A stretch of DNA of 64,000 nucleotides. It comes from Betaproteobacteria bacterium (GTDB lineage: Bacteria; Pseudomonadota; Gammaproteobacteria; Burkholderiales; SG8-41). The DNA is taken from the NCBI GenBank assembly GCA_028292225.1, contig JAQGMV010000106.1, positions 16,494-80,493 on the forward strand. The letters run 5' to 3'. The position numbers were made by a program, and so were the translations under genes. Below the pieces are notes generated by a model. That model did not search any database. It was not told the origin of the DNA and saw nothing but the letters and a program-made list of their open reading frames with translations. This document shows positions 19,505-36,570 of the stretch, in pieces (the stretch's first letter is position 1; every line of letters starts with the position of its first letter).

Positions 19505-20128
19505 ATGACGGTCTTGACGAATCTGAATCTGGTCACCGCCACGGGCGTGGCTTACGCGCTGCTCGGCGCACTCACCATGTTCGTGTGCAACCGCGCGCTC
19601 TATCGCAGCGCGAGCCGCATTGTAGCGGGCTACCCGGGCGTGCTCGCGATCCTGTCGACCCGGCGCCGCGACGCCCGGTCCGGTCTGGTGCTGCTCACTG
19701 CGGGCATCGCGCTCCAGGCGCTCGGCGCCTGCGGCTACACCGCGCCGGCGAGCCTCTGGCGCTATCCTGTTTTCACGCTCGCCGCCTTCCTCCTCATCCA
19801 TTGCGTGCTGCGCTTCAACGCTTCGCGGCACATTCCGGTCTCGCGCAGAGCGGGTTCCCGCGAGCTCTTCCAGACCCGGCGCTCGATGCGCCTGCGCGAA
19901 GCGGCGCAGCGCGAAGCCGCCAACCTGCACGCGAGAGAGGCCGCCCGCAGCCCTCGCGACAACGGCATCGTTTACCTCGGGCACGAATGGGCGCCGCAGT
20001 GGTGGAGCGACAGGTTCGGCGTGAGCATCGACGTCCTCAGGACGGCCTTGCACCACGTCGGTCCGATGGTCGTCGACGTCGAGCGCTTTCTCGCGCTCCA
20101 GCGCCGCACGCGCGAGCTCGCCGCCTGA
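19505..20128 (+). CDS. membrane protein with C-terminal DUF3606-like domain
   Basis: Three predicted TM helices in the first 100 aa. The C-terminus SPRDNGIVYLGHEWAPQWWSDRFGVSIDVLRTALHHVGPMVVDVERFLA resembles the DUF3606 pattern (xxINVxExYEVxYWAxxLGVSxxxLxxAVxxVGxxVxxVxxxL). Confidence 0.55.
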   Translation: MTVLTNLNLVTATGVAYALLGALTMFVCNRALYRSASRIVAGYPGVLAILSTRRRDARSGLVLLTAGIALQALGACGYTAPASLWRYPVFTLAAFLLIHCVLRFNASRHIPVSRRAGSRELFQTRRSMRLREAAQREAANLHAREAARSPRDNGIVYLGHEWAPQWWSDRFGVSIDVLRTALHHVGPMVVDVERFLALQRRTRELAA

Positions 20129-23316: not shown

Positions 23317-23472
23317 CTAGATCACGCCCATCAGCAGCAGCACGATGAGCACGACGACGAGCAGCCCGATGCCGCCGACGGGACCGCCGCCCCAGCCGGA
23401 GCGGTAACCGTATCCGCCGCCTCCGAGCAGCAGGATGATCAGGATGATTACGATCAATGCGGTAGTGCTCAT
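23317..23472 (-). CDS. DUF3309-like small membrane protein (51 aa)
   Basis: ATG 23472 to TAG 23319-23317 translates to MSTTALIVIILIILLLGGGGYGYRSGWGGGPVGGIGLLVVVLIVLLLMGVI. This is two hydrophobic helices flanking a Gly-rich YGxxxGWG loop, the pattern I recall for DUF3309. It is not in the ORF track (<60 aa); the 78-aa track ORF here is in another frame. Confidence 0.6.
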   Translation of the reverse strand: MSTTALIVIILIILLLGGGGYGYRSGWGGGPVGGIGLLVVVLIVLLLMGVI

Positions 23473-23572: not shown

Positions 23573-24913
23573 CTATCGGCCGTCGGCACCGCGCACGCGC
23601 ACATAAACCCTGATCCGGCTGTCGGCGCGGTTGTCATAGCGGCGGATCTGCTCGATCAGCGAAGCACTGAGCGGGTGATCCCTCGACACGAGCAGCGTGC
23701 CGTCAGCGGCGACCAGATCGCGCGTGAGCACCATCCCGGGCTCGAGCGCGTCGGGCTCTAGCGCGCGCTCCATGACCGGCACGACACCGGCGACGTCCAG
23801 AACCGCGACGAGCGCGTCGACGACTGCGGGGTCGTAGTGCTTTTCGCTCGCGTCGATCAGCAGCGCGCGCGCCTGCACCCTCGACACCGCGGTGCCGGTG
23901 AGGACGCCTTCGAGCGCGGTTTCGTAATCGTGTGCGACGGCGAGGATGCGCGAGCCCATCGGAATGTCGAGACCGCTCAGCCGGTCGGGATAACCCATGC
24001 CGTCGTAGCGTTCGCGATAGTTGCGGATGAGCGTAGCCGCGCCGTGGAGCTGCTCCAGAGCCATCAGCGCCCACTGCGCTTTGAGCGGATGCTTCATGAC
24101 GGCTGCGCGCTCGTCGGGATCGAGCGCGTTCAAACGCTTGCGAAGGATGGTCTCGGGCAGGCCGAGCTCTCCAATGCCGTGCAGGAGCCCGGCGAGCGTG
24201 ACGTCCTGCAGATCCTCGCCGCCAAGCCCCAGCCGCAGGGCGATGCGCCGCGCGAGATCGGCGACGCGCCGGGAATGCCCCGACGTCGCGCCTTCGCGAA
24301 GCTCGATCAGGTTGGAGAAGACTTTCACCGAAGTGACGAAGCTTTTCTTGAGCTTGTCGTGGACGGCTTCGAGACTGGCGAGCGCGTCGGCGAGCTCCGC
24401 GGTGCGCGCATGCACTTTCTCCTCGAGGGTTTCGTTGAGCGTCCTCAGCGCCTCGTTCTGCTGCGCGGTCAGGCGCTCGAGACGCGCCTTCTCGCGCCCG
24501 AGACGCTTGCGTTCCAGCGCATCGCGCACCACACCGAGAACGACCGCGTCCTCCCACGGCTTCGAAATGTAGCGATAGATCTCCGCCTTGTTGATCGCGG
24601 ACACGGTCGAGGCGAGGTCAGCATAGCCGGTCAGCAGGATACGTGCGGTGTCGGGCGAGCGTGCCTTCACCTGCTCGAGAAACTGCGCGCCGTCCATGTG
24701 CGGCATGCGCATGTCCGAAAGCACGAGGTCGACCGTCGTGGCGGCGATCACCTCGAGACCTTCGGCGCCGCTCGGGGCGGTGAGCACGCGGTACCCGTGC
24801 GGGCGCAGCAGGCGCCGCAGCGCATTGAGGATGTTCGTCTCGTCGTCGACGCACAGCAGCGTCAAAGGCGCGTCCTCCCGGGTATCCCCGGCCGGCACCG
24901 AGGCGGTGTTCAC
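23573..24913 (-). CDS. response regulator with degenerate HD-GYP domain
   Basis: REC domain: LLCVDDETNILNAL, acceptor in LVLSDMRMPHMDG, ILLTGY, YISKPW. The HD-GYP-like domain reads HSRRVADLA, LLHGIGE (HD changed to HG), KHP and NYRERYDGMGYP (HHE changed to YRE, GYP kept). A possible GTG start at 24913 overlaps the upstream stop (GTGA); the track start is 24955. Confidence 0.85.
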   Translation of the reverse strand: MNTASVPAGDTREDAPLTLLCVDDETNILNALRRLLRPHGYRVLTAPSGAEGLEVIAATTVDLVLSDMRMPHMDGAQFLEQVKARSPDTARILLTGYADLASTVSAINKAEIYRYISKPWEDAVVLGVVRDALERKRLGREKARLERLTAQQNEALRTLNETLEEKVHARTAELADALASLEAVHDKLKKSFVTSVKVFSNLIELREGATSGHSRRVADLARRIALRLGLGGEDLQDVTLAGLLHGIGELGLPETILRKRLNALDPDERAAVMKHPLKAQWALMALEQLHGAATLIRNYRERYDGMGYPDRLSGLDIPMGSRILAVAHDYETALEGVLTGTAVSRVQARALLIDASEKHYDPAVVDALVAVLDVAGVVPVMERALEPDALEPGMVLTRDLVAADGTLLVSRDHPLSASLIEQIRRYDNRADSRIRVYVRVRGADGR

Positions 24914-26250
24914 GTAATACCCTTCGCCGCCGCCTGCCTGCGCACCGGGATGCACACGCGAAACGTGGTGCCGTGGCCCTGCCGGCTTTCGACCTCGATG
25001 CGCCCGCGATGCTTCCGGACGATGCCGTACGAGAGCGCCAGCCCGAGGCCGGTCCCCTTGCCGACGGGCTTGGTCGTAAAGAACGGATCGAAGATGCGAT
25101 CGATGTGACCGGGATCGATACCCGACCCGGTATCGGTGATCTCGACCCGGACTTCCTCACCTTCGCCGACGCCGACGCAGGTCCGCACCGTGATCGTGCC
25201 GTGCCCGTCGATCGAGTGCGCCGCGTTGACCAGAATGTTCATGAACACCTGGTTGAGCTGTGACGGCAGGCACTCGACCTGCGGGAGCGCGCCGTACTCC
25301 CTGACGAGCTGCGCCTTGTACTTGATCTCGTTGTTGACGATGTTGATCGTGCTGTCGATCCCCTCGTGCAGGTCCGCGTGCCGCCACTCGTCGTCACCCC
25401 CGCCGTGTGAAAAATCCTTCAGGTCCTCGACGATCTTGCTCACTCGAGAGATCCCTTCCTCGGACTCGCGCATCAACGCGAACACATCCTCTGTCAGGTA
25501 GGCGAGGTCTGCGCTCTCCTTCGCGGCGAGCACCGCCTCCATCACCGCGGGGTCGCAGATCGACGCGTCGGCCCGCTCGTACGCGGCGACGACGTCGAAC
25601 ACCTGCTTCAGATAGCCGCCCAATGCCCCGAGGTTGGACTTCACATAGCCGATCGGGTTGTTGATCTCATGAGCGACACCCGCAGCGAGCTGCCCGATCG
25701 AGGCCATCTTCTCCGATTGCAGCAACTGGTTGCGCGTCTCGCGCAACTGCTGGTTGATCTGGCGCTGCTCCTCGTTGCTTCGAAGCAGCGCCTGCTCGGC
25801 GTCCCTGCGGGCGGAGATCTCCTCGACCAGCGCCTCGCTCACCTGCGCCGCGCGCAGCATGTAGCGCACGCGGTGCCCGAGGATCGGCCAGTTGACCGGC
25901 TTGGTCACGAAGTCGGTCGCGCCGCATTCGTATGCGCGCTCGATGGAAATGGTATCGTGCAGCGCGGTCATGATGAGCACCGGCGTGGTCGCGCTGGGGG
26001 CGATCTCGCGCAGACGGGTGCACACTTCGAAGCCGTCGATCCCCGGCATCATGAGATCGAGCAGGACCATGTCGTGCCGCGTGCGGGCGAACGCGTGAAG
26101 CGCGCCCGCGCCGTCGACCGCTTCTTCGACCCGCATGCCGCAACGCTCGATCGCCCTGCGTGCGCAGAGGCGCTGCACCGCGTTGTCGTCGACGACGAGC
26201 ACCACCGGCGCGACGCCGCGCGCCGCCACCGACGCCGAGGCCGCGCTCAT
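24910..26250 (-). CDS. hybrid REC-histidine kinase (N-terminal receiver, HisKA, HATPase_c; no TM or ligand-binding sensor domain)
   Basis: REC domain: VVLVVDDNAVQRL, VLLDLMMPGIDG, VLIMTAL, FVTKPV. A coiled coil follows, then H-box ASIGQLAAGVAHEINNPIGYV, N-box FMNILVNAAHSI and G-boxes ITDTGSGI and GKGTGLGLALSYGIV. The ATG overlaps the upstream stop (ATGA at 26247-26250). Confidence 0.9.
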   Translation of the reverse strand: MSAASASVAARGVAPVVLVVDDNAVQRLCARRAIERCGMRVEEAVDGAGALHAFARTRHDMVLLDLMMPGIDGFEVCTRLREIAPSATTPVLIMTALHDTISIERAYECGATDFVTKPVNWPILGHRVRYMLRAAQVSEALVEEISARRDAEQALLRSNEEQRQINQQLRETRNQLLQSEKMASIGQLAAGVAHEINNPIGYVKSNLGALGGYLKQVFDVVAAYERADASICDPAVMEAVLAAKESADLAYLTEDVFALMRESEEGISRVSKIVEDLKDFSHGGGDDEWRHADLHEGIDSTINIVNNEIKYKAQLVREYGALPQVECLPSQLNQVFMNILVNAAHSIDGHGTITVRTCVGVGEGEEVRVEITDTGSGIDPGHIDRIFDPFFTTKPVGKGTGLGLALSYGIVRKHRGRIEVESRQGHGTTFRVCIPVRRQAAAKGIT

Positions 26251-29200
26251 GAACCCCGCGTCTCGAGGGCCGCGGCTTCGACGCGCGTCTCGCTCAACAG
26301 CAGACGCAGGTTTTCATTGGCCTGCGTGAGCGCTTTGACGCGCGCGGCCGCGGCTTCGTGCCGGCGCTGGTTGTCCCTGACCGCCGCATACCGGCGGCAC
26401 GCCTCCGCGATGTGCGCGCGAAGCAGGTTGTCGTCCCACGGCTTGGTGAGGAAGCGGTAGATCGCCCCCTGGTTGATCGCATCGGTGACGCTCTCCAGAT
26501 CGGTATAGCCGGAGAGCACCATGCGAACCGAGTCCGGGTAGAGGTCTTTAACGCGCCGCAGGAACTCCACCCCGGTCGCCTCCTGCATGCGCTGATCCGA
26601 AACGATCACGCCGACGCGGTTCGCGGCAAGGACCTCGAAGGCGGCGCTCACGCTCGTGGCCGTGAAAATACGGTATTTGTCGCGGCGCAGAAGGCGCTTC
26701 AGCGACGACAGCACATTCTCCTCGTCGTCGAGGAGCAGCAGCGTGCGCTCGCCTTCGTCGTCATCGGTGCGCGGACGTTCGAGCCGGCGGTTCTGACCCA
26801 GCATTTCGGTGATCGCGGACGCGTCGCAAGGCCGTGAGAAATAGTAGCCCTGGATCTGGTCGCACCCGTTCGAGGACAGGAACGAAAGCTGCGCTGCGGT
26901 CTCCACGCCTTCGGCGACCACCTTCAGGTGCAGGTTGTGCGCCATGTCGACGATCGCCTTCGCGATCGAGGCGTCGTCCGGGTTCGAGGCGAGATCGGTG
27001 ACGAACGAACGATCGATCTTCACGGTATCGATCGGCAGGCGTTTCAGATAGCTCAGGCTGGAATACCCGGTGCCGAAATCGTCGATCGCGAGGTCCACGC
27101 CGAGGGCCTTGAGCTCGCGCAGGGTCGCGATCGAGGCTTCGGCGTTGTGCATCGCGACGCTTTCCGTGATCTCGAGCTCGAGCAGATGCGGCGCCACATC
27201 GTGCTCGCGCAGGGTCCTGCCCACGAGCTCGCACAGATCCTGCTCGTGAAACTGCCGCGATGAGAGGTTGACCGCCACCGGCACCGCCTTCACGCCCGCG
27301 GCTTTCCACGCCGCGAGCTGTGCGCACGCGGCGCGCAGCACCCACTCCCCGACGGGAACGATGAGCCCGGTCTCTTCCAGCAGCGGGATGAAATCCCCGG
27401 GCGATACGATCCCGGATTCGGGCGAGTTCCAGCGCAGCAGCGCTTCCAGACCGGCGATCTCGCCCGTCGCGAGATCGACTTTCGGCTGGTAGTGCAGGAA
27501 GAACTCCTCGCGCTCGAGCGCGTGCCGAAGCCGCCTTTCCATCTCCATTTTTTCGAGCGCGCGCGCATTCATCTCCGCCTTGTAGAACCGGCAGGCGTTG
27601 CGGCCGGCCGCTTTTGCGCTGTACATCGCGGCGTCCGCGTCCCGCATGAGCGTGTCGACCTCGCGGCTGTCCGCGGGATAGAGCGCGATGCCTATGCTCG
27701 CGGTCGCGAAGATCTCGTGGCCGTCGATCCCGTACGGCTCGGCGACCGAGGCGAGGACGTGCCGGGCGATGGTGCCGGCGTCCTGCAGTGTCCCGAGGCC
27801 CGACAGGATGACGGCGAATTCGTCGCCGCCGAGCCGGCCGATCGTATCGGCCCCGCGAACGCACGCTCTCAGGCGCTGCGCCACCTGCTGCAGGAGCTTG
27901 TCGCCCACGGCGTGACCGAGCGTGTCGTTGACGACCTTGAAACGGTCGATGTCCAGACTGAGCACCGCGATCGTCCACGCATTCCTCTGCGCCTGCGCCA
28001 CCGCCTGCAACAGCCGGTCGTGGAAGAGCACGCGGTTGGGCAGCGCTGTGAGCTGGTCGTAGTGCGCGAGGTGCAGCAGCCGCTCCTGCGCCTGCTTGCG
28101 CTCGGTGACGTCTTCGGTGACGCCCGCGATGCGATGGACCTCGCCACAGGCGTTACGCACCGGGAACGCGCGGCTGTGTGCCCAGCGCTCGGTGCCGTCG
28201 GTGTGGGCGATGCGAAACTCCACATCGAAATCGCCGCTCTCGCCTTTGCGCGCCCACTCCCGCTCGACCCGCTCGCGATCGTCCACATGCACGACCTCGA
28301 CCCAGTTGCGGCCCTCGAGGTCAGCGGCCGCGCGTCCCGTGAGCTTCTCGACTGCGGGACTGATGTAGCTGAGCGCGTAGTGCTCGGTGTCGCTGATCCA
28401 GAACGTTTCGGGAATGTGCGCGATGAGCTGCCGGAACTTTTCGTCGCTCTCGCGCAGCGAGTCTTCCGCAGCCTTGCGCTGGATGAGTATCCCGAGCTGC
28501 GCGGCCACTACGGTGACGAGCTCCACGAGCTGCGCGTCATCGCTGCGGTTTTCGTTCATGAAAAACTCGAGCAGCGCCGCGGAGCGCTTCTCCACAGGCA
28601 CGGGAATGCCGCACCAGGACACGAAACCCGCTGCGCGCGCGCTGTCATTGCGCCTGAATCCGTCCTGCGTGAGATCGGGCACCCAGCGCGGCGCATTGTT
28701 CACGAACACCGAACCGGCAAACCCGAGCTCGGATTCCAGGTTCAGGCGCCGCTTGCCGCCGGCGAACGCCGCGAACCGGTCCGAGCCGTCGTGCCAGGCG
28801 ACCCGGCACTCGAGGACTTTTCCCGCCAGATCCGGCAGCCACGCCTGGCCGTAATTCCAGCCGGTGGTGTCGCAGATCTTCTGCAGCACGATCGACAGCG
28901 CCGCGTCGACGTCGCGGGCCTGGCTGATCGCGAGCGTCGTTTCCTGCAACAGGGCGGCGCGCGCTTCGGCACGCTTGCGGTCGGTGATGTCCTCGATGAC
29001 CCGCAGGAAGTAGAGCGGCACGCCCGCTGCATCGCGCACCACCGACACGGTGCGGTTCACGCACATGATCGAGCCGTCCTTGCGAACATAGCGCCGCTCG
29101 GCCGCAAACGTCTGGGCGTTACCCTCCAGCAGCATGGTGTGATCGGCGCTGATGGCGCGATCGTCGGGATGCAGCACCTGGTCCGTGCGCATCGTGAGAA

Positions 29201-30128
29201 GCTCCTCGCGCGTGTAACCGAGCATGTCGCACAGCTTCTGGTTGACCATGAGATAGCGCCGGTCCAGCGACGCGTTCGCGATGCCGACCGCTGCCTGCTC
29301 GAACGTGGCGCGAAAGCGCTCCTCGGCGGCTTTGCGCTCCGAGATGTCGAGGGCCATCGCGACGAAATAATCGACCTCGCCTGTCGTTTTTCGAACCGCC
29401 GACACCGCGACCTCCACCCAGAGGATGCCGCCCATCTTGGTGAGATAGCGCTTCTCGATCGACGCGGTGCGATCGCACGTGGGATCGGACATCAACGCCT
29501 CGTGCCAGCGCATGCTTGCCGCGTGGTCGTCGGGGTGCAGGATGTCGAGCACCCCGCGCCCGCGCAGCTCTTCCCGCGTATAACCGAGCATGCTGCAAAA
29601 ACGCCTGTTCACTTCGATGAACTTCCAGTCGGTCGTCGCGTGCGCGATACCCGCGCCGGCCTGGTCGAAAGTGGCGCGATAGCGCTCCTCGTGCCGCGCC
29701 TCGCTTGCGCGCATCTCGTCGGCGCTGAGCCGGACCGCTCTGCGCAGACGCCGGCGCTCCATGGCGGAGGCGATCGACGGGACCAGCCGGGTGAGCCGGT
29801 CCTTCAGCAGGTAATCGTCGGCGCCCTGCTGCATCGCCTGGACGGCGTGATCTTCCCCGATCGCGCCGGACACGATGATGAAAGGCACGTCGAGCCCGGC
29901 GGCGTTGAACAGCTCGAGCGCGCGTGTCGAATTGAACGCGGGCAGCGCGTGATCGCACAGCACGAGGTCGGGACACGCATTCAGCGCGGTGACGAAGCCG
30001 GCCTCGCCGTCTACGCAGGTCGAGTCGACGGTACAGCCCTCCGCCTGAAGCGTCGACAGAATCAGTTCGGCATCGCGTACGTTGTCTTCGACGAGCAACA
30101 GGCGGACAGGCGAAACGTCGATGCTCAT
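26247..30128 (-). CDS. REC-PAS-PAS-GAF-PAS-GGDEF-EAL-REC multidomain c-di-GMP turnover protein (1293 aa)
   Basis: N-terminal REC ([23 protein letters not shown]). Repeated PAS blocks ([48 protein letters not shown]). GAF-like block ([19 protein letters not shown]). GGDEF domain (RGAD I-site then [11 protein letters not shown]). EAL domain ([32 protein letters not shown]). C-terminal REC ([33 protein letters not shown]). I placed the start at ATG 30128 ([12 protein letters not shown]); the track ORF extends to 30353. Confidence 0.9.
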   Translation of the reverse strand: [1293 protein letters not shown]

Positions 30129-30261
30129 GAGGGAGAAGCTCGCATGGTCTATAACGCGGGGGCACGTCGCTGGCGCACGTTCTATGAATAGTGGGGGATC
30201 ATAGTGAGCCGCATCGCCCGCGCCTATCGGGATGCCCCTGAAGGAGGGGCTGCCAAATACC

Positions 30262-32367
30262 TTAAGCCGGCGCGGAATGAAGGAGAGGCAGGACCAGACT
30301 GATCTCGGTGCCGAGCTCCTTTGATGACACGATCTCGATCCGTCCGCCGGCAAGCGCCACCCGCTGCTTCATGTCGGCGATGCCTGCTCCCGACAGACTC
30401 GCGCACACGGCCGCGACATCGAAGCCTGCGCCGTCGTCGACGAGGGTCAGCTCCAGCTCCCCCGCGCTGACCGTGAGCTCGACCCAGACATTGCGCGCAC
30501 CTGCGTGCGCGACGACGTTCGCGAGCGCCTTCTGCGCAATGCGAAAACAGTTCGCCTCGAGATCCGGGCGCAGCCGCGTGGCGCCGAGCGACGAACGAAA
30601 ATGCGCGGCGAGTCCGCTCCTCGCGCTCTCGCGCTCGACGCACGCGCGTAGCGCGGCTTCGAGCCCGAGCTCGGTGAGCTGCGGCGGGCGCAGATCGACC
30701 GACAGCGCGCGCACGCGCTGCAGGGCCGCGTCGGCAATGTGCAGGGACTCTTTGAGCTGCGGGCTCGGCATGCGCCGGTGCACCGACTGCACGTTCATCT
30801 TGATCGCGGCGAGCGACTGGCAGAGCTCGTCGTGCAGCTCGTAGGCCACGGTGTGGCGCTCGGCTTCCTGAGTCTCGAGGAGGCGCACCGAGAGCGCCTG
30901 CAGCCGTTCGTTCGCCGCCTCCAGCGCGTGCTGCGTCCTGAGGCGCTCGCCGATGTCGCGCGCGACCTTCGACGCCCCGACGATTTCCCCCGATGCATCC
31001 CTGATCGGGGAGATCGTGACCGAGACGTCGATCAGGCGGCCGTCGCGAGTCACACGCACCGTGTCGAAGTGGGCGATGCGCTCGCCGCGGCTGATGCGAC
31101 TCTGAATATGTTCTTCCTCGCCGCTGCGCTCCGGCGGAATCAGGCGCGTGATCGAAGTGCCGACCATATCGTGCGCCGGATAGCCGAAAAGCCGCTCGGC
31201 GCCCGGGTTCCAGCTCGTGACGATGCCTTTCAGATCCTTGCCGACGATCGCATCGTCGGACGAATCGACGATGGCGCCGAGGCGCGCGCTCGCGGCGTCT
31301 CGCGCCTGCAGCGCCTGCGCCATATCGTCGAAAGCTGCGGCGAGCTCGCCGAGCTCCCCCGCCGCGCGAGCACTGCCGCTGCGCGCCGCAAACTCCCCCC
31401 GGGCCAATCGCCGCGCGGCGGAGGCCAGCCGCTGCACCGGGCGCAGCACGAACGCGTTGCCGCCGAACACCGCAGCCGCAAGCGATAGCACGATGACTGC
31501 GGCGAGGCCGCCGAGGTTGCGCGCGAGCTCGCGGTAGGCCGCCTGGAGCATGTCCGTGCGCGGGATCCCGATCGCAGTGAACAACGCGGGGCCCGACGCC
31601 GTGTTGAGCATGGTGTAGGAGTACACGCGGTCGATACCGTCGATGGCCGAGGCCTGCACCGTGCCCGATACGCCGCGCGACGCCGCGTCGAGCAGCGGAC
31701 CCGCCTGGAGCTTCTGGCCGACGAGGTAAGCCTTGTCGGGGTAGGCGCTCAGAACGACCCCGTGCCGGTCGGTGGTGAGGAGCATCGCGCTCGCGGGCAG
31801 CGCGATCTCCCTTGCAAGGCGCTCGAACTCGTCCATGCGCACCGAGGCGAATATGACCGCGCTCACGCGTCCGCCGTCGTCGAGGACGGGATACGCGACA
31901 CTGAAGGACGGCCGACCGGTCGCGCGCCCGATCTGATACTCCCCGACGGTGAACTCACGCGCCTGAAGTGCGCGGGTGAAATACGAGCGGTCAGCGATGT
32001 TCAGCATGCGCCCGGACTTGCGCGAGTGACAGCGCACGTCGCCGTCGGTCGTGGCCACGCCGAATACGCCGTACCACGAGTATTGGGCGATGAGCTCTGC
32101 GAGATACTCCCCGCAGGCATCCGAGACGTCGTTGCGAACGACCCCGGTGTGCGAGAGCGCGACGAGCAGGTGGTGCGTGCCTTCGAGGAGCCGCGCCTGC
32201 TGCATGGCCACGAGCCTCATCAGGCGCGCGTTGTCGTCGCGCTGCGCCCTCACCAGCGCCTCGTGCTCTCCGGACGCGTTGTACAGGATCAACGCGGCTG
32301 CGGGAACGAGTGCGAGCAGCACGAGGAGCACGAGCCTGGCGCGCAGGCCGCCGAAGTGGATAGGCAT
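30262..32367 (-). CDS. sensor histidine kinase (Cache-like periplasmic domain, HAMP, PAS, HisKA_3, HATPase_c)
   Basis: TM1 LVLLVLLALVPAAALIL. Cache-like block IADRSYFTRALQAREFTVGEYQIGRATGRPSFSVAYPVLDD. A second TM and HAMP (LRPVQRLASAARRLARGEF...ELGELAAAFDDMAQAL). PAS domain (IVDSSDDAIVGKDLKGIVTSWNPGAERLFGY). NarX-type H-box YELHDELCQSLAAIK. Confidence 0.88.
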   Translation of the reverse strand: MPIHFGGLRARLVLLVLLALVPAAALILYNASGEHEALVRAQRDDNARLMRLVAMQQARLLEGTHHLLVALSHTGVVRNDVSDACGEYLAELIAQYSWYGVFGVATTDGDVRCHSRKSGRMLNIADRSYFTRALQAREFTVGEYQIGRATGRPSFSVAYPVLDDGGRVSAVIFASVRMDEFERLAREIALPASAMLLTTDRHGVVLSAYPDKAYLVGQKLQAGPLLDAASRGVSGTVQASAIDGIDRVYSYTMLNTASGPALFTAIGIPRTDMLQAAYRELARNLGGLAAVIVLSLAAAVFGGNAFVLRPVQRLASAARRLARGEFAARSGSARAAGELGELAAAFDDMAQALQARDAASARLGAIVDSSDDAIVGKDLKGIVTSWNPGAERLFGYPAHDMVGTSITRLIPPERSGEEEHIQSRISRGERIAHFDTVRVTRDGRLIDVSVTISPIRDASGEIVGASKVARDIGERLRTQHALEAANERLQALSVRLLETQEAERHTVAYELHDELCQSLAAIKMNVQSVHRRMPSPQLKESLHIADAALQRVRALSVDLRPPQLTELGLEAALRACVERESARSGLAAHFRSSLGATRLRPDLEANCFRIAQKALANVVAHAGARNVWVELTVSAGELELTLVDDGAGFDVAAVCASLSGAGIADMKQRVALAGGRIEIVSSKELGTEISLVLPLLHSAPA

Positions 32368-32469
32368 GCGGCAAGCTTAGGCAGTGCGGGTGTGCGCGCA
32401 CAATCGGGCGATACCCGAGGCGGCGCCTGGAAAAACCTTAAGCGTGCCGCCGTGCAGCGCCGTCAGGCG

Positions 32470-33111
32470 CTAGATGCCGATCAAACCCTCGCGTATCGCA
32501 TAGCGCACGAGGCCCGGGATATCGTTGATGCCGAGCCGCTCCATGAGCTGCATCCGATGCGTCTCGACCGTTTTGACGCTGACCAGGAGGCGGTGCGCGA
32601 TCTCCTTGGTGCTGTGACCCTGCGCAATGTGCAACAGGACTTCGCGCTGCCTCGGCGTGAGCGGCTGATCGGTTTTTTTCGCATCGCGGCCGAGATAGTC
32701 GTGGATGACCTGTGTCGACACCGCCGGGCTCAGGTAGGTGTCGCCGCGAAGCACCGCGCGCAGCGCGAGCTCGAGCTCCAGCGGCGCCGCGTCCTTGAGC
32801 AGATACGCCGAAGCGCCCGCTCTGAGCGCCTGGGTCACGTACTCCCTGCTGTTGTGCATGCTGAGGATGACGATCCGGATACGCGGGTCGCGCTCGCGGA
32901 TGCGGGCTGTCGCCTCGAGCCCGTTCAGCGCTTGCATCGCGATGTCCATGATGACGATGTCGGGCCGGTGCTCCTGCGCCAGGGTGACGGCTTGCGCGCC
33001 GTCCGCGGCTTCGGCCACGACCTCCATGTCCGGCGCATCGCCGAGCAGCGCGCGCAGGCCCGCGCGAACGATCGCATGATCGTCGACGAGCAGGATGCGT
33101 GCTCGGGTCAT
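32470..33111 (-). CDS. NarL/FixJ-family response regulator (REC + LuxR HTH)
   Basis: MTRARILLVDDHAIVRAGL, acceptor in DIVIMDIAM, ILSMH, YLLKDA. The C-terminal HTH is LTPRQREVLLHIAQGHSTKEIAHRLLVSVKTVETHR. ATG 33111 overlaps the upstream kinase stop (ATGA at 33108-33111). The track ORF (to 33507) is over-extended. Confidence 0.92.
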   Translation of the reverse strand: MTRARILLVDDHAIVRAGLRALLGDAPDMEVVAEAADGAQAVTLAQEHRPDIVIMDIAMQALNGLEATARIRERDPRIRIVILSMHNSREYVTQALRAGASAYLLKDAAPLELELALRAVLRGDTYLSPAVSTQVIHDYLGRDAKKTDQPLTPRQREVLLHIAQGHSTKEIAHRLLVSVKTVETHRMQLMERLGINDIPGLVRYAIREGLIGI

Positions 33112-34181
33112 TCTGCCCTTCCCCCCTGCACTGCCAGAGGAAACGACGCCGTGACGGCGGTGCCTGCCGGGGTTCGCCGGGCGATCGAGATGCGGCCTGC
33201 GGCGAGGAGCGTGCGCTCGTGCATCCCGAGCAGGCCGAGGCTTGCGCCGCCGACGGCGCGTGCGTGGGCCTGCGCAACGTCGAAGCCGGTCCCGTTGTCT
33301 TCGATGGTGAGCTCGAGCGTGCCGTCCCTGCAGCAGAGCTGGACCCACACGTCCTCGGCACCCGCATGGCGCAGCACGTTGGTGAGCGTCTCCTGGGCGA
33401 CGCGAAAGCACGCGATCTCCAGCTCGGGCCGAAGACGCCGCGGGACCCCGTGCGTGTGAAAATGCGCCGCGACGCCCGAGGCATCGCACTGGTGCCTGAT
33501 CAGCCACCCGATCGCAGCCTCGAGCCCGAGGTCGTCGAGGTGGGGCGGCCGCAGGTTCAGCGAGAGGCCGCGCACCTGGTCGAGCGCGCGCGCCGCAATC
33601 GTGGCGCAGTCGTCGATGTCCGCGCCGAACGCGGCATCGGTAATCTTGCGGCGCAGGCGCTGCAATCCGATCTTGACCGCGGTCAGCGCCTGCCCGATCT
33701 CGTCGTGCAGCTCATGCGCGATGCGCCGGCGCTCGGTCTCCTGCACCTGGAGAACGCGTCCGGCGAGACCCTGCGCGCGGCGGTTGGCGATCAGCAGCGC
33801 CTCGTCCGCGCGCTTGCGTTCGGTCAAGTCCTGAGCCGTGCCGTACATGCGGCCCGCAACACCGGGCGTCGCGTCCCAGGCACCGCGTCCGAGCAGCGGT
33901 ATCGTCGTCGAGTCGGGGCGCATCACACGGTATTCGCACGTGAAACTCTCATGTGTCGCGCGGCAGAGCGCCACCGCGCTTTCGAGAGCGCTCACGTCGT
34001 CGGGATGAACGCGCTCCAGCAGCCCGCGTAAGGTCGGCGTGAAGGTTTCAGGCGTCACGTCGAAGATGCGGTAATGCTCGTCCGACCATGTGAGCCGGTC
34101 GCGGCCGATGTCCCATTCCCAGCTCCCCACGCGCGTGAGGTCCTGAGTGAGGCGCAGGTGCTTTTCGAAATCGAGGGTCAT
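33108..34181 (-). CDS. cytoplasmic PAS-HisKA_3 histidine kinase
   Basis: PAS domain (VGSWEWDIGRDRLTWSDEHYRIFD, VHPDDV), H-box HELHDEIGQALTAVK, and HATPase motifs (AQETLTNVLRHAGA, IEDNGTGFD, GLLGMHER). No TM segment. Confidence 0.88.
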   Translation of the reverse strand: MTLDFEKHLRLTQDLTRVGSWEWDIGRDRLTWSDEHYRIFDVTPETFTPTLRGLLERVHPDDVSALESAVALCRATHESFTCEYRVMRPDSTTIPLLGRGAWDATPGVAGRMYGTAQDLTERKRADEALLIANRRAQGLAGRVLQVQETERRRIAHELHDEIGQALTAVKIGLQRLRRKITDAAFGADIDDCATIAARALDQVRGLSLNLRPPHLDDLGLEAAIGWLIRHQCDASGVAAHFHTHGVPRRLRPELEIACFRVAQETLTNVLRHAGAEDVWVQLCCRDGTLELTIEDNGTGFDVAQAHARAVGGASLGLLGMHERTLLAAGRISIARRTPAGTAVTASFPLAVQGGRAE

Positions 34182-34363
34182 GCGGCGGCTTTTGCACGGC
34201 GGTGCCGGAATCTAGGCGCTATCGCCGGCCCCGTCTGTCGGGAGTGTTTGACGCCGGGCAAGACCGGGTGCGATCGATGCAGACGCCATGACTTTTTATA
34301 TTCGGGGAACACGCATGCGCACCTCCACAACCCCACGGTTTCCGGCCCGCGAGTCTCCCGCGA

Positions 34364-34651
34364 CTCGAGGTCGCACGATCGGAAGGCAGCGTCCTCGACG
34401 ACACCGCAGGCCGCAGGTACATCGACTTCGTCGTGGGCGGGTGCGTCGGCACTTCGGCTGGCGCAACGCACCAGCGCGCAAGGCTATCGCACGCTACACA
34501 GGCCCCGACTGCGTCTATCCCGGTTATACGTGCGCCGCGGGGGCGCAGCTTGCGGAGCTTCTCGTCGAACTCGCACCGGGCGAGCGAAGTGGCCACCGGC
34601 TTCGGCCGCACCGGCAGGCTCTTCGCGTGCGAGTATTACGGTATCGTGTGA
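34364..34651 (+). pseudogene. decayed class-III (BioA/omega-type) aminotransferase fragment
   Basis: One frame reads LEVARSEGSVLDDTAGRRYIDFVVGG (N-terminal signature of class-III aminotransferases) and ends ATGFGRTGRLFACEYYGIV-stop (the DEIxTGFGRTGKxFAxEH box). A shifted frame gives YPGYTCAAGAQLAELLVELAPGE. About 130 aa between the boxes and the whole C-terminal half are missing. Confidence 0.6.
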
Positions 34652-34734
34652 ACCGGCCTGCCGGACCGGCAGCGCTGTAGGGAGAGTTTGACAGTTGCGC
34701 CGGGCGGCCTCGCCATCGCCCGAACGGCGCACTC

Positions 34735-36570
34735 GTGCGTGTGACAATATGCGATTCGCATCTGCGACCGCAGCTCTGTCGCTCGTTCGTGTCCGCGCGC
34801 TCCCTCGTCAATCGATTGCTTCCCTTCGACCCTCTGCCCCGCGCCACCATACGAAGCCGGCTCATCGCGCTCGTGCTCGCGATCGCGCTGCCGCTGCTCG
34901 CCTTCGCAGGATTTCTCATCCACTCCAACGCCGCGCAGAGCCGCCGCGTGGCCGAGTTCTCGGCGCTCGCGATCGCCCGCGACGTCGCCGGCGCGACCGA
35001 CGAATTCCTCGATGCCTCGGCGAAAGTGCTGCCGCGGCTCGCCGGCCGCACCCGCTTCACCGACAAGGGACACATCGAGTGCGATCCGCTGCTGCCGGAG
35101 TTCCACGCGGTGCTGCCGAGGATCGTGAACATCATCGTCGTCGATCGCGAAGGCACTCTGGTGTGCAGCGCGATCCCTTTTCCTGGCGGACGTTTCGAGT
35201 CGGCAGCGAACGAGCCCTGGTTCAAGGCGACGCTGAAGGAACGCAGGAGCTTTCTGAGCCCGCCTCGCATCGGCAAGATCAGCGGGAAGTGGATCAGCAG
35301 CTTCACCTACCCGATCTTCGACACGACCGGCGAGCCGCGAGGCGTGATGACTCTTGCGATCGACCTCGTGAAGTTCGAGCCGGTGATGCGCGCGCTCGCA
35401 CTGCCGCCGGGTGCGATCGCCGGCATCATCGACGAGCACGGCACCGTCGTCGCGCGATCGATCGATGCGGAAAAATGGATAGGCGGCCGGATCGGCGTCC
35501 CGATGAGTCAGGTCATCGCACCGGACGCGCCCACCGGGCAGGTCCAGACCGCGGGACTCGACGGCGTCGAGCGCTTCCATGCGCTCGTGCGCATCCCGCA
35601 GACGTCGTGGATCGCCTACGCAGGCATCCCGGCAGGCCCGCTCGCACAGCAGGAAAGGCAAAGCCGCCTCGCGCTCTACGCGGCTACGGTTCTCGTGCTG
35701 CTCGCCGCGGGCGCTCTCGCGCTCGCGCTCGGCCGGCGTATCACCCTGCCGATGCGCGCGATGGCTGACGTCGCGCGCGCGGTCGCAGCCGGCAACACCG
35801 GGCGCCGGGCGCCCGTTGTCGGGCCGATCGAAATCCGGGAAGTCGCCACCGAGTTCAACCACATGATCGAGGTGAGGCAGCAGTCGGAATCGCACCTGCG
35901 CGAGCTCGCGACGCGCCTTCGCACGCTCTCGCGGCGCCTCATCGAAGTGGAAGAAGCCGAGCGCCGTGCGATCAATCGCGAGTTGCACGACCGTATCGGC
36001 CAGAACCTCGCGGTGCTCAACCTCAATCTCGAGATCGTTCGCGGGCAGTTGCCCGCCGACGTGTCCGCTGACGTGAACACGCGGCTGGCCGACGCGCGCG
36101 GCCTGCTCGAGCGCACCGTGGCGCACGTGCGCGACGTCATGTCCGACTTGAGGCCTGCGGCCCTCGACGAATACGGCCTCGACGCCGCACTGGGGATTTA
36201 CGTCGAAGCGTTCAGCGCAAGAACCGGCGTGGCGGTGATCTACGGCGCAGAGCCCGTCGCGCCGCGGCTGCCGATGATGATGGAGACCGCGCTGTTTCGC
36301 ATCGCCCAGGGGGCGCTCGTGAACGTTGCAAAGCACGCGCACGCGCAGCACGTGGAGCTTACGCTCGTCGCGACCCCGGATCGCGTGGTGTTGACGGTAT
36401 CCGACGACGGCATAGGCTTCGCTTCCGAAGCGGCCGGCGAAGCGCACGCGCACTGGGGCCTGGCGACGATGCGCGAGCGCGCCGAGGCGATCGGAGCGGT
36501 CATCCGCATCGAGTCGGCGCCGCACGAGGGCACGCGCGTGACCGTGGACGTCCCGCGACCCGCGCTTTGA
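34735..36570 (+). CDS. sensor histidine kinase (Cache-like domain, HAMP, HisKA_3, HATPase_c)
   Basis: TM LIALVLAIALPLLAFAGFLI. Cache-like block IVVDREGTLVCSAIPFPG...WFKATLKERRSFLSPPRIGKISGKWISSFTYPIFD. HAMP (RRITLPMRAMADVARAVAAGN...EVATEFNHMIE). H-box RELHDRIGQNLAVLN. HATPase (AQGALVNVAKHAHA, VSDDGIGF). The track start is GTG and is uncertain. Confidence 0.85.
   Translation: MRVTICDSHLRPQLCRSFVSARSLVNRLLPFDPLPRATIRSRLIALVLAIALPLLAFAGFLIHSNAAQSRRVAEFSALAIARDVAGATDEFLDASAKVLPRLAGRTRFTDKGHIECDPLLPEFHAVLPRIVNIIVVDREGTLVCSAIPFPGGRFESAANEPWFKATLKERRSFLSPPRIGKISGKWISSFTYPIFDTTGEPRGVMTLAIDLVKFEPVMRALALPPGAIAGIIDEHGTVVARSIDAEKWIGGRIGVPMSQVIAPDAPTGQVQTAGLDGVERFHALVRIPQTSWIAYAGIPAGPLAQQERQSRLALYAATVLVLLAAGALALALGRRITLPMRAMADVARAVAAGNTGRRAPVVGPIEIREVATEFNHMIEVRQQSESHLRELATRLRTLSRRLIEVEEAERRAINRELHDRIGQNLAVLNLNLEIVRGQLPADVSADVNTRLADARGLLERTVAHVRDVMSDLRPAALDEYGLDAALGIYVEAFSARTGVAVIYGAEPVAPRLPMMMETALFRIAQGALVNVAKHAHAQHVELTLVATPDRVVLTVSDDGIGFASEAAGEAHAHWGLATMRERAEAIGAVIRIESAPHEGTRVTVDVPRPAL

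Follow-up and report, generated by a model that had tools for sequence, protein, structure and literature searches.

A putative receiver-gated NosK/NosR-type module encoded with a GGDEF-EAL enzyme in a betaproteobacterial contig

The 64,000-nucleotide stretch of a Betaproteobacteria bacterium genome analysed here (the window; contig JAQGMV010000106.1, positions 16,494 to 80,493) carries on its minus strand three consecutive signalling genes, here named g1, g2 and g3. With slightly more confidence than doubt, we read them as a NosK/NosR module that lacks NosP, is gated by a receiver domain (REC) and is encoded together with a probable enzymatic partner, in an arrangement resembling HnoK, HnoB and HnoD. 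Gene g1 (26247..30128) encodes a REC-PAS-PAS-GAF-PAS-GGDEF-EAL-REC enzyme of 1293 amino acids from an ATG at 30128, g2 (24910..26250) a soluble NosK-type histidine kinase of 446 amino acids with an N-terminal receiver, and g3 (23573..24913) a NosR-family response regulator with a degenerate HD-GYP domain, of 446 amino acids if it starts at the GTG at 24913. The domain orders obtained with Pfam agree with those proposed in an earlier reading of the locus made from the letters alone (the sequence-only reading), although the HisKA match of g2 is weak.

As that reading had described, the genes overlap at their stop and start codons, in an ATGA at 26247..26250 between g1 and g2 (TTC ATGA GCG) and a GTGA at 24910..24913 between g2 and g3 (ACG TGA ACA), both read directly in the sequence. 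The second overlap presupposes the GTG start of g3. The longest open reading frame begins 42 nucleotides upstream of this codon, and the Joint Genome Institute (JGI) annotated a 97% identical orthologue from there; the GTG is nevertheless the presumed start, backed by the 4-bp overlap of orthologue starts. Among related metagenome contexts the ATGA overlap recurs in L001, L089 and L099, and a 4-bp overlap of the g2/g3 type is found in the orthologues of L001, the P0018 contig, L089 and L098. Overlaps of 4 bp occur at 5/15 of the same-strand junctions in a rough gene map of the window. They are ordinary here, and count as evidence of an operon rather than as a special signal.

The g1 product starts with a receiver (REC1, residues 9-125; window 29754-30104, minus strand as for all coordinates of the three genes), followed by two PAS domains (148-260, 29349-29687; 270-381, 28986-29321), a GAF domain (404-550, 28479-28919), a third PAS domain (564-676, 28101-28439), GGDEF (688-844, 27597-28067), EAL (865-1100, 26829-27536) and a second receiver (REC2, 1131-1240, 26409-26738). 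The motifs reported intact by the sequence-only reading are indeed unbroken, namely RGAD(x5)GGDEF, which comprises the I-site and the GGDEF motif, and EALLR, DDFGTG and EGVE. The protein is thus predicted to make (GGDEF) and break (EAL) c-di-GMP (cyclic dimeric guanosine monophosphate), with sensing by its PAS and GAF domains. The EAL motifs and REC2 are unbroken in every g1 orthologue seen, while GGDEF is degenerate in two of them (GADQF, GDDAF) and REC1 is absent from the L001 orthologue.

The g2 kinase consists of a receiver (residues 17-122, with Asp65; 25885-26202), a dimerization and phosphotransfer region (DHp; ~25501-25743) in which the weak HisKA match lies at 186-210 and His194 is part of an HEINNP motif, and a HATPase domain (329-437; 24940-25266). 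Pfam detected no sensor domain and no Hpt domain in it. The maximum 19-residue hydropathy is 1.63, so the protein has no transmembrane segment and should be soluble. The receiver is its sole input, in agreement with the sequence-only reading, which had found neither a transmembrane nor a ligand-binding domain. The HEINNP motif matches the H-E-I-N-N box described for NosK (PMC12570481). Over receiver and core together, g2 shares 65-69% identity with the orthologues of L085 and L089, and 98% with that of L004. The NCBIfam model T2SS_HK scored 388 bits on g2, below its cut-off of 450, and g2 was not assigned to that family.

The g3 product belongs to the NosR family. The NCBIfam model NF053512, entitled 'response regulator c-di-GMP phosphodiesterase, NosR family', matched it with 532.5 bits against a cut-off of 400, over the whole profile (1-422 of 422; residues 19-438). 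Degenerate, canonical, orphan and NosP-linked relatives also pass the cut-off (P0005, P0066, P0032 and the L011 homologue). The domains of g3 are a receiver (residues 20-125, with Asp67; 24539-24856), a long linker helix (24293-24538), a degenerate HD-GYP domain matched by HD_5 (197-364; 23822-24325) and a family-specific C-terminal domain (375-440; 23594-23791). An AlphaFold2 model with a mean predicted local distance difference test (pLDDT) score of 78.5 shows a receiver, a helix of 85 residues, the bundle of the HD-GYP domain and, at the C-terminus, a small alpha/beta domain. Among solved structures, receiver domains of HD-domain regulators match its fold best, with DvhD and PA4781 next. 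The C-terminal domain (~65 residues, L-x-P-G-M-V-L ... L-I-E-Q-I-R-R-Y, pLDDT ~80) lies within the NosR profile, and no Pfam family matched the last 70 residues. A DUF3391-like identity, suggested by the LxPGM motif, was dropped for want of a match.

The motifs of g3 were aligned with those of PmGH (4MCW), V-cGAP3 (5Z7C), PA4781 (4R8Z) and DvhD (9RBZ). Relative to these solved HD-GYPs, HD has become HG (D246 to G), the following Lys is Glu249 and HH has become YR (H299 to Y, H300 to R), while E-x-x-DG-x-GYP is retained. H213, H245, H275, E301 and D329 are still present, and a His has been gained at position 328 (N to H). The full metal-ligand set of catalytic HD-GYPs (H, HD, H, HH, D) is therefore incomplete, and the protein is better read as a regulator than as an enzyme, as the sequence-only reading proposed from its eroded ligands. 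Every active HD-GYP with a solved structure uses the Asp of its HD motif and both His of HH as core ligands (bioRxiv 10.1101/2021.11.05.467447). Because the ligands lost are those whose loss left HnoD, ECA3548 and DvhD inactive, we consider g3 quite probably non-catalytic.

Homologues of g3 run to thousands, and the best 120 (51-97% identity) are full-length REC-HD-GYP proteins of ~440 residues from Betaproteobacteria. The 40 closest carry the signature H-G/V/A-E/Q/K ... Y-R-E ... D-G-x-G-Y-P ... H-D. The remaining 80 are mostly canonical (H-D-K ... H-H-E ... N-D; ~71-77 of them at each position), with a minority showing partial substitutions such as R/L-D, Q-H and H-R. In a 38-member alignment of the degenerate clade, H245, R300, E301, D304, G307, Y308, P309, H328 and D329 are invariant, and Y299 nearly so. 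With the signature columns masked, neighbour joining placed all 40 sequences together with one HR variant in a clade of 41 that has no canonical member. The pattern indicates that the degenerate signature arose once, long ago, and has been maintained since, rather than reflecting ongoing decay. A DNA-pattern scan of metagenomes for YRERYDGxGYP returned 7 loci, among them 1 true relative, already in the set.

Such co-ordinated substitutions, near-invariant down to ~54% identity, are unlike decay and would also suit an enzyme that is still active at a site reshaped by these changes (Asp to Gly, Lys to Glu, HH to YR and N to H328) for another metal or another substrate, perhaps another nucleotide; H213, H245, H275, E301 and D329 persist, together with the new His328. 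We nonetheless hold this to be quite improbable, given the loss of the core ligands named above and the inactivity of every tested protein that lacks them (HnoD, DvhD, ECA3548).

Eight contexts of the HG(E/K)-YR type could be read: the window, L004 (97%), L001 (66%), the P0018 contig (of which L085 is a short NCBI copy), L089, L098, L099 and L088. The L088 context ends inside the kinase, leaving seven of the eight with a readable kinase N-terminus. In all of these (7/7) a REC-HisKA-HATPase kinase lies directly upstream of the g3-type gene, and the EAL-REC enzyme is present in the same 7/7, mostly with 4-bp overlaps. In the lineage of the window, two derived features, the degenerate signature and the receiver-fused kinase with its retained triad, occur jointly. 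The triad, which the sequence-only reading had described as translationally coupled, is also co-conserved, recurring in all independent metagenome contexts that could be checked (6/6, at 63-97% identity).

A wider neighbourhood was surveyed with the degenerate-clade alignment as scan query. Among the matches listed, 80 species-representative loci, all at <=57% identity to g3, came from Gallionellaceae, Rhodocyclaceae, Zoogloea, Sulfuricella, Methylotenera and others; the species-level counts below refer to these loci. A kinase was scored at >=50% identity to the g2 core, and an EAL protein with a receiver at >=45% identity to g1 REC2. The g2-core kinase adjoins the NosR homologue in 56 of the 60 loci with enough flank, sharing 55-63% identity with the core of g2. 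An EAL-REC2 protein lies within 10 kb of the NosR homologue (<=10 kb) in 42/53 loci, and all three genes occur together in 40/53. The N-terminus of these kinases is variable, being short in the NosP-partnered ones, fused to hemerythrin, or long with PAS/GAF domains, and a receiver was found at that position in 0/80 loci. These comparisons show the kinase input as an apparently swappable part, for which NosP, hemerythrin, PAS/GAF or a receiver can serve.

Genes with the FIST-FIST_C architecture (NosP type) were found between NosR-like and NosK-like genes in L011 (11363-12514), L013 (11351-12487), L022 (11330-12466) and L069 (3374-4513), where the flanking kinases are 57-62% identical to the g2 core (59-62% for the 358-residue kinases of several relatives). 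It follows that g2 and g3 correspond to a NosK/NosR pair and, as these are Nitrosomonadales-type genomes, that the nosRPK order is far wider than Burkholderia. The loci belong to Sideroxydans and other genomes of that type, and their HD-GYP domain is canonical. Searches by tblastn with two FIST queries detected no FIST gene anywhere in the 64 kb of the window, nor in L001, L004, L085, L088, L089, L098 and L099. Many canonical relatives (L009, L014-L016, L031, L044-L046, L065) carry an extra gene set ~1.3-6 kb downstream of the NosR homologue, encoding a receiver protein of ~185 residues, an Arf-like small GTPase of ~215, a kinase of ~410 and a receiver-containing protein of ~743; Pfam confirmed the Arf-like GTPase in L009 and L016, and the set is missing from the window.

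The acceptor Asp is kept in all four receivers of the triad (D59 and D1178 in g1, D65 in g2, D67 in g3). REC2 of g1 and the receiver of g3 share 45% identity (local score 278), against 24-30% for all other receiver pairs, and REC2 also matches the receiver of the NosR model (2e-49). Across species, conservation together with the kinase core is limited to these two receivers, and they are therefore the likely targets of g2. The receiver of g2 and REC1 of g1 come from other lineages, and their phosphate donors are probably other kinases. The sequence-only reading had the kinase feed three other receivers; this has to be narrowed, since only REC2 and the g3 receiver are paralogous and co-conserved, and REC1 is absent in L001.

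That reading further envisaged a self-contained phosphorelay, in which g2 autophosphorylates under the gating of its own receiver and feeds the three other receivers without outside input. Four receivers and one kinase in one coupled unit, along with PAS and GAF domains of g1 that could sense within it, are in keeping with such a relay. However, no Hpt family was matched in any of the three proteins (Pfam, E up to 0.01), nor in the scanned neighbours, and a branched two-component pathway with outside input therefore fits better. Neither g1 REC1 nor the g2 receiver is related to NosR-type receivers, and extra kinases or KaiC/KaiB repeatedly found beside the triad could feed g2. Taken together, we think a closed relay of this kind very unlikely.

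Because the receiver is the only input of g2, an outside phosphodonor is needed. Possible candidates, judged from gene neighbourhoods, are a recurring dCache-HAMP-PAS-HisKA_3 kinase with a NarL regulator, or KaiC/KaiB. The dCache-HAMP-PAS-HisKA_3 architecture found next to g1 in the window also lies beside the triad in L088 and L099, and NarL-type regulator or two-component genes do so in L001, L088, L098 and L099. In L089 (4269-6295), genes for KaiC (578 residues) and KaiB (97 residues) are inserted with 4-bp overlaps after the REC-kinase gene, and a second gene, encoding PAS-GAF-GGDEF(degenerate)-EAL-REC, lies between them and the dead REC-HD-GYP gene, directly before the latter. The P0018 contig has a KaiC-like gene just upstream. 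KaiC/KaiB could possibly provide a clock or redox input to modules of this type.

Receivers that act as phosphate sinks are known in branched two-component pathways. The g3 product might be only such a sink, its receiver competing with that of g1 for the phosphate of g2 while the HD-GYP part is a relic; in line with this, the receiver is the best-conserved part of g3 (64-80% identity, compared with 55-62% for the HD-GYP domain). The HD-GYP and C-terminal domains are, however, conserved throughout the clade with invariant substituted residues, which speaks for selection on them and leaves a pure sink role scarcely credible.

One of the closest known systems is nosRPK of Burkholderia. There the FIST-domain haem protein NosP senses nitric oxide and controls the soluble kinase NosK, which has the H-E-I-N-N box and no recognised sensor and phosphorylates NosR, a degenerate HD-GYP protein (HG ... 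GTP); the authors of that work guess that NosR acts by inhibiting a phosphodiesterase or by activating a cyclase (PMC12570481). As in B. pseudomallei and B. thailandensis, g3 falls in the NosR family model with HG in the same position, and a soluble H-E-I-N-N kinase without a transmembrane segment is encoded next to the regulator. In contrast to these systems, the window and the triad loci contain no NosP/FIST gene, NosK has ~130 unassigned residues where g2 has a true receiver domain, g3 retains GYP in place of GTP, and the triad co-encodes a GGDEF-EAL-REC enzyme, none being described for nosRPK in PMC12570481. As part of the overall reading, and held with the same modest preference, g2 would be a NosK-type kinase/phosphatase in which a receiver has taken the place of the usual input, be it a NosP/FIST partner or a fused hemerythrin or PAS/GAF domain.

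The second system is the Hno network of Shewanella oneidensis, in which the EAL enzyme HnoB is inhibited by HnoD, an effect that phosphorylation lifts (Plate and Marletta 2012, as summarised in PMC6335343, PMC8846402 and bioRxiv 10.1101/2021.11.05.467447). In this network the kinase (HnoK/HnoS) branches to a receiver-bearing EAL phosphodiesterase and a dead-site REC-HD-GYP protein, the same logic as in the triad. The architecture of kinase, EAL receiver protein and dead REC-HD-GYP is found in both, and the match is one of architecture only, domain order and size being different. The Hno inputs are H-NOX and NosP where g2 has a receiver, HnoB is REC-EAL where g1 is a multi-sensor GGDEF-EAL protein of 1293 residues with its receiver after EAL, and there is no transcription factor of the HnoC type inside the triad. 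By analogy, the Hno network is most likely the best model of triad function.

The sequence-only reading had found no named circuit for these genes. The score of g3 above the NF053512 cut-off, the H-E-I-N-N box of g2 and the published transfer from NosK to NosR (PMC12570481) do connect them to one, as does the HnoK/HnoB/HnoD logic. Its remark that the genes recall RpfC/RpfG without being that system holds, since the kinase architecture differs. In the Xanthomonas system a REC-HD-GYP regulator likewise adjoins its kinase, and RpfC, a hybrid kinase in the membrane, has both a C-terminal receiver and an Hpt domain. Identity with RpfC/RpfG was discarded, as g2 is soluble with an N-terminal receiver and no Hpt domain, and g3 groups in the NosR family, not with RpfG. 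RpfG itself acts partly via protein contacts (bioRxiv 10.1101/2021.11.05.467447).

Two further systems provide precedents for g2. In NosP-NahK-NarR of Legionella pneumophila, a bifunctional enzyme of the receiver-GGDEF-EAL type is under phosphorylation control by a NosP-family kinase (PMC8846402), a precedent for g2 acting on g1. NarR differs in being a simple REC-GGDEF-EAL protein under NosP input, without a degenerate HD-GYP partner (PMC8846402). In Rhodospirillum centenum, the kinase CheS3 carries its receiver at the N-terminus, and phosphorylation of this receiver by CheA3 puts CheS3 under the control of another kinase, as proposed for g2; the pathway is an unrelated Che-like cascade for cyst formation and contains no c-di-GMP enzymes (PMC3868531).

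DvhD of Desulfovibrio vulgaris (PDB 9RBZ), a degenerate HD-GYP protein that binds c-di-GMP without metals (PMC13090378), raises the principal alternative for g3, namely a c-di-GMP receptor or effector whose dead domain captures c-di-GMP that g1 has produced or left intact and relays the signal. Lacking the HD and HH ligands, DvhD is among the solved HD-GYPs closest to g3 and one of its best matches in both sequence and fold; moreover, D304, G307, Y308 and P309 are invariant in the clade. DvhD, in contrast, is a membrane LapD-like receptor, and its c-di-GMP contacts are not conserved in g3, where K582, M646, R650 and Y652 align to E249, A333, V337 and T339; binding through other residues is conceivable. 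The Lys so replaced contacts the phosphodiester, and according to an HD-GYP survey it also binds c-di-GMP in PmGH. The RPY stretch is missing from the whole family, and g3 has no known output domain besides the small C-terminal one. A receptor role, which the sequence-only reading had assigned to g3 as reader or effector, is hence not supported, and we rate it unlikely. Members of the NosR family, canonical HD/HH ones included, lack the RPY(K) stretch after D-x-x-D-A-L (g3 324-345; window ~23879-23944), a region whose residues supply c-di-GMP contacts in DvhD (PDB 9RBZ; PMC13090378). Substrate binding may therefore be atypical even in active-looking NosR members.

From the observed anatomy of the unit, family membership, metal-ligand loss, clade monophyly and neighbourhood conservation we infer a signal flow, every biochemical step of which is conditional. 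An outside kinase would phosphorylate Asp65 of g2 and thereby set the balance of its kinase and phosphatase activities, with the action of CheA3 on CheS3 as a precedent. Phosphate would then pass from His194 of g2 to Asp1178 of g1 and Asp67 of g3, a transfer proposed because of the co-conservation, the paralogy of the receivers and the published transfer from NosK to NosR. The state of the C-terminal receiver of g1 would tune the adjacent EAL and GGDEF domains, with HnoB and NarR as precedents. Finally, and as the least certain step, g3 would bind g1 and modulate its c-di-GMP turnover depending on its own phosphorylation, as HnoD does with HnoB. This HnoD-like action is favoured over a receptor role because the DvhD contacts are absent, the Lys is replaced by Glu, and the EAL-REC enzyme is a near-constant genomic partner.

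Several points weigh against this NosP-less, receiver-gated NosK/NosR module. In a deeper, orphan sub-branch of the degenerate clade (HV/HA/HG-Q-YR), no kinase or EAL gene was found nearby in 3/3 contexts, so that this regulator is able to act with no partner gene beside it. Close members of the degenerate clade come from metagenome contigs only, the species-level matches listed all being at <=57% identity. Lastly, HnoD carries the substitutions SE and QLE where g3 has HG and YRE; the two were therefore inactivated independently, and the analogy is one of function, not orthology.

A further reading, doubtful in our view, sees the HG(E/K)-YR clade as a derived two-tier cascade, in which an upstream system (the dCache/HisKA_3 kinases or, for some relatives, KaiC/KaiB) drives the NosK-type kinase and the co-ordinated g3 substitutions at HD, the Lys, HH and position 328 form a new site that docks the EAL enzyme or binds a ligand other than c-di-GMP. 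If this were true, NosR regulators, those of Burkholderia included, would have in the co-encoded EAL-REC protein the type of target long looked for. EAL enzymes with a NosR-like receiver are a candidate partner class for NosR-type regulators, and in the window such a candidate sits in the same operon as g3. In Burkholderia pseudomallei, NosP/NosK/NosR has effects on biofilm, on motility and on resistance to nitric oxide (PMC12570481). What is new here is a receiver as the input of a NosK-type kinase and an EAL/GGDEF enzyme in the same unit, with no new signalling principle.

The triad forms the downstream end of a ~13-kb signalling island, to which the neighbouring genes across 30262-36570 belong. 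Upstream of g1 is a spacer of 133 nucleotides (30129..30261), a possible promoter region or a stretch of read-through from the dCache kinase gene. The promoter/terminator scan found no sigma-70-like site or terminator in this spacer, and in the three-gene unit nothing exceeding shuffled expectation. The spacer is preceded on the same strand by the gene of the dCache-HAMP-PAS-HisKA_3 sensor kinase (30262..32367), the candidate outside input, and by those of a NarL/LuxR-type response regulator of 213 residues (32470..33111) and a PAS-HisKA_3 kinase (33108..34181) that overlaps the regulator gene in an ATGA, all assigned with Pfam. A divergent dCache-HAMP-HisKA_3 kinase gene follows on the plus strand (34735..36570).

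The orphan HVQ-YR branch lies, in two different contigs (L086/L087, 10001-13970, and P0025), beside genes for an SbmA/BacA-type ABC transporter and a formate/nitrite transporter, with no kinase nearby. On the other side of the triad, a gap of 100 nucleotides separates g3 from a minus-strand gene for a DUF3309 small membrane protein of 51 amino acids (23317-23472), and a 51-residue gene is also found downstream of the g3 orthologue in L004. The window has ~66% G+C, and TctC genes are among the neighbours; taken with the nearest named matches, this suggests an uncultured member of the Burkholderiales, and no identical g2 sequence was on record. Both the window (19505-20128, plus strand) and the 66% identical relative L001 (13301-14167) carry a gene for a DUF3606-containing protein at a few kb downstream of the triad, a hint of wider synteny.

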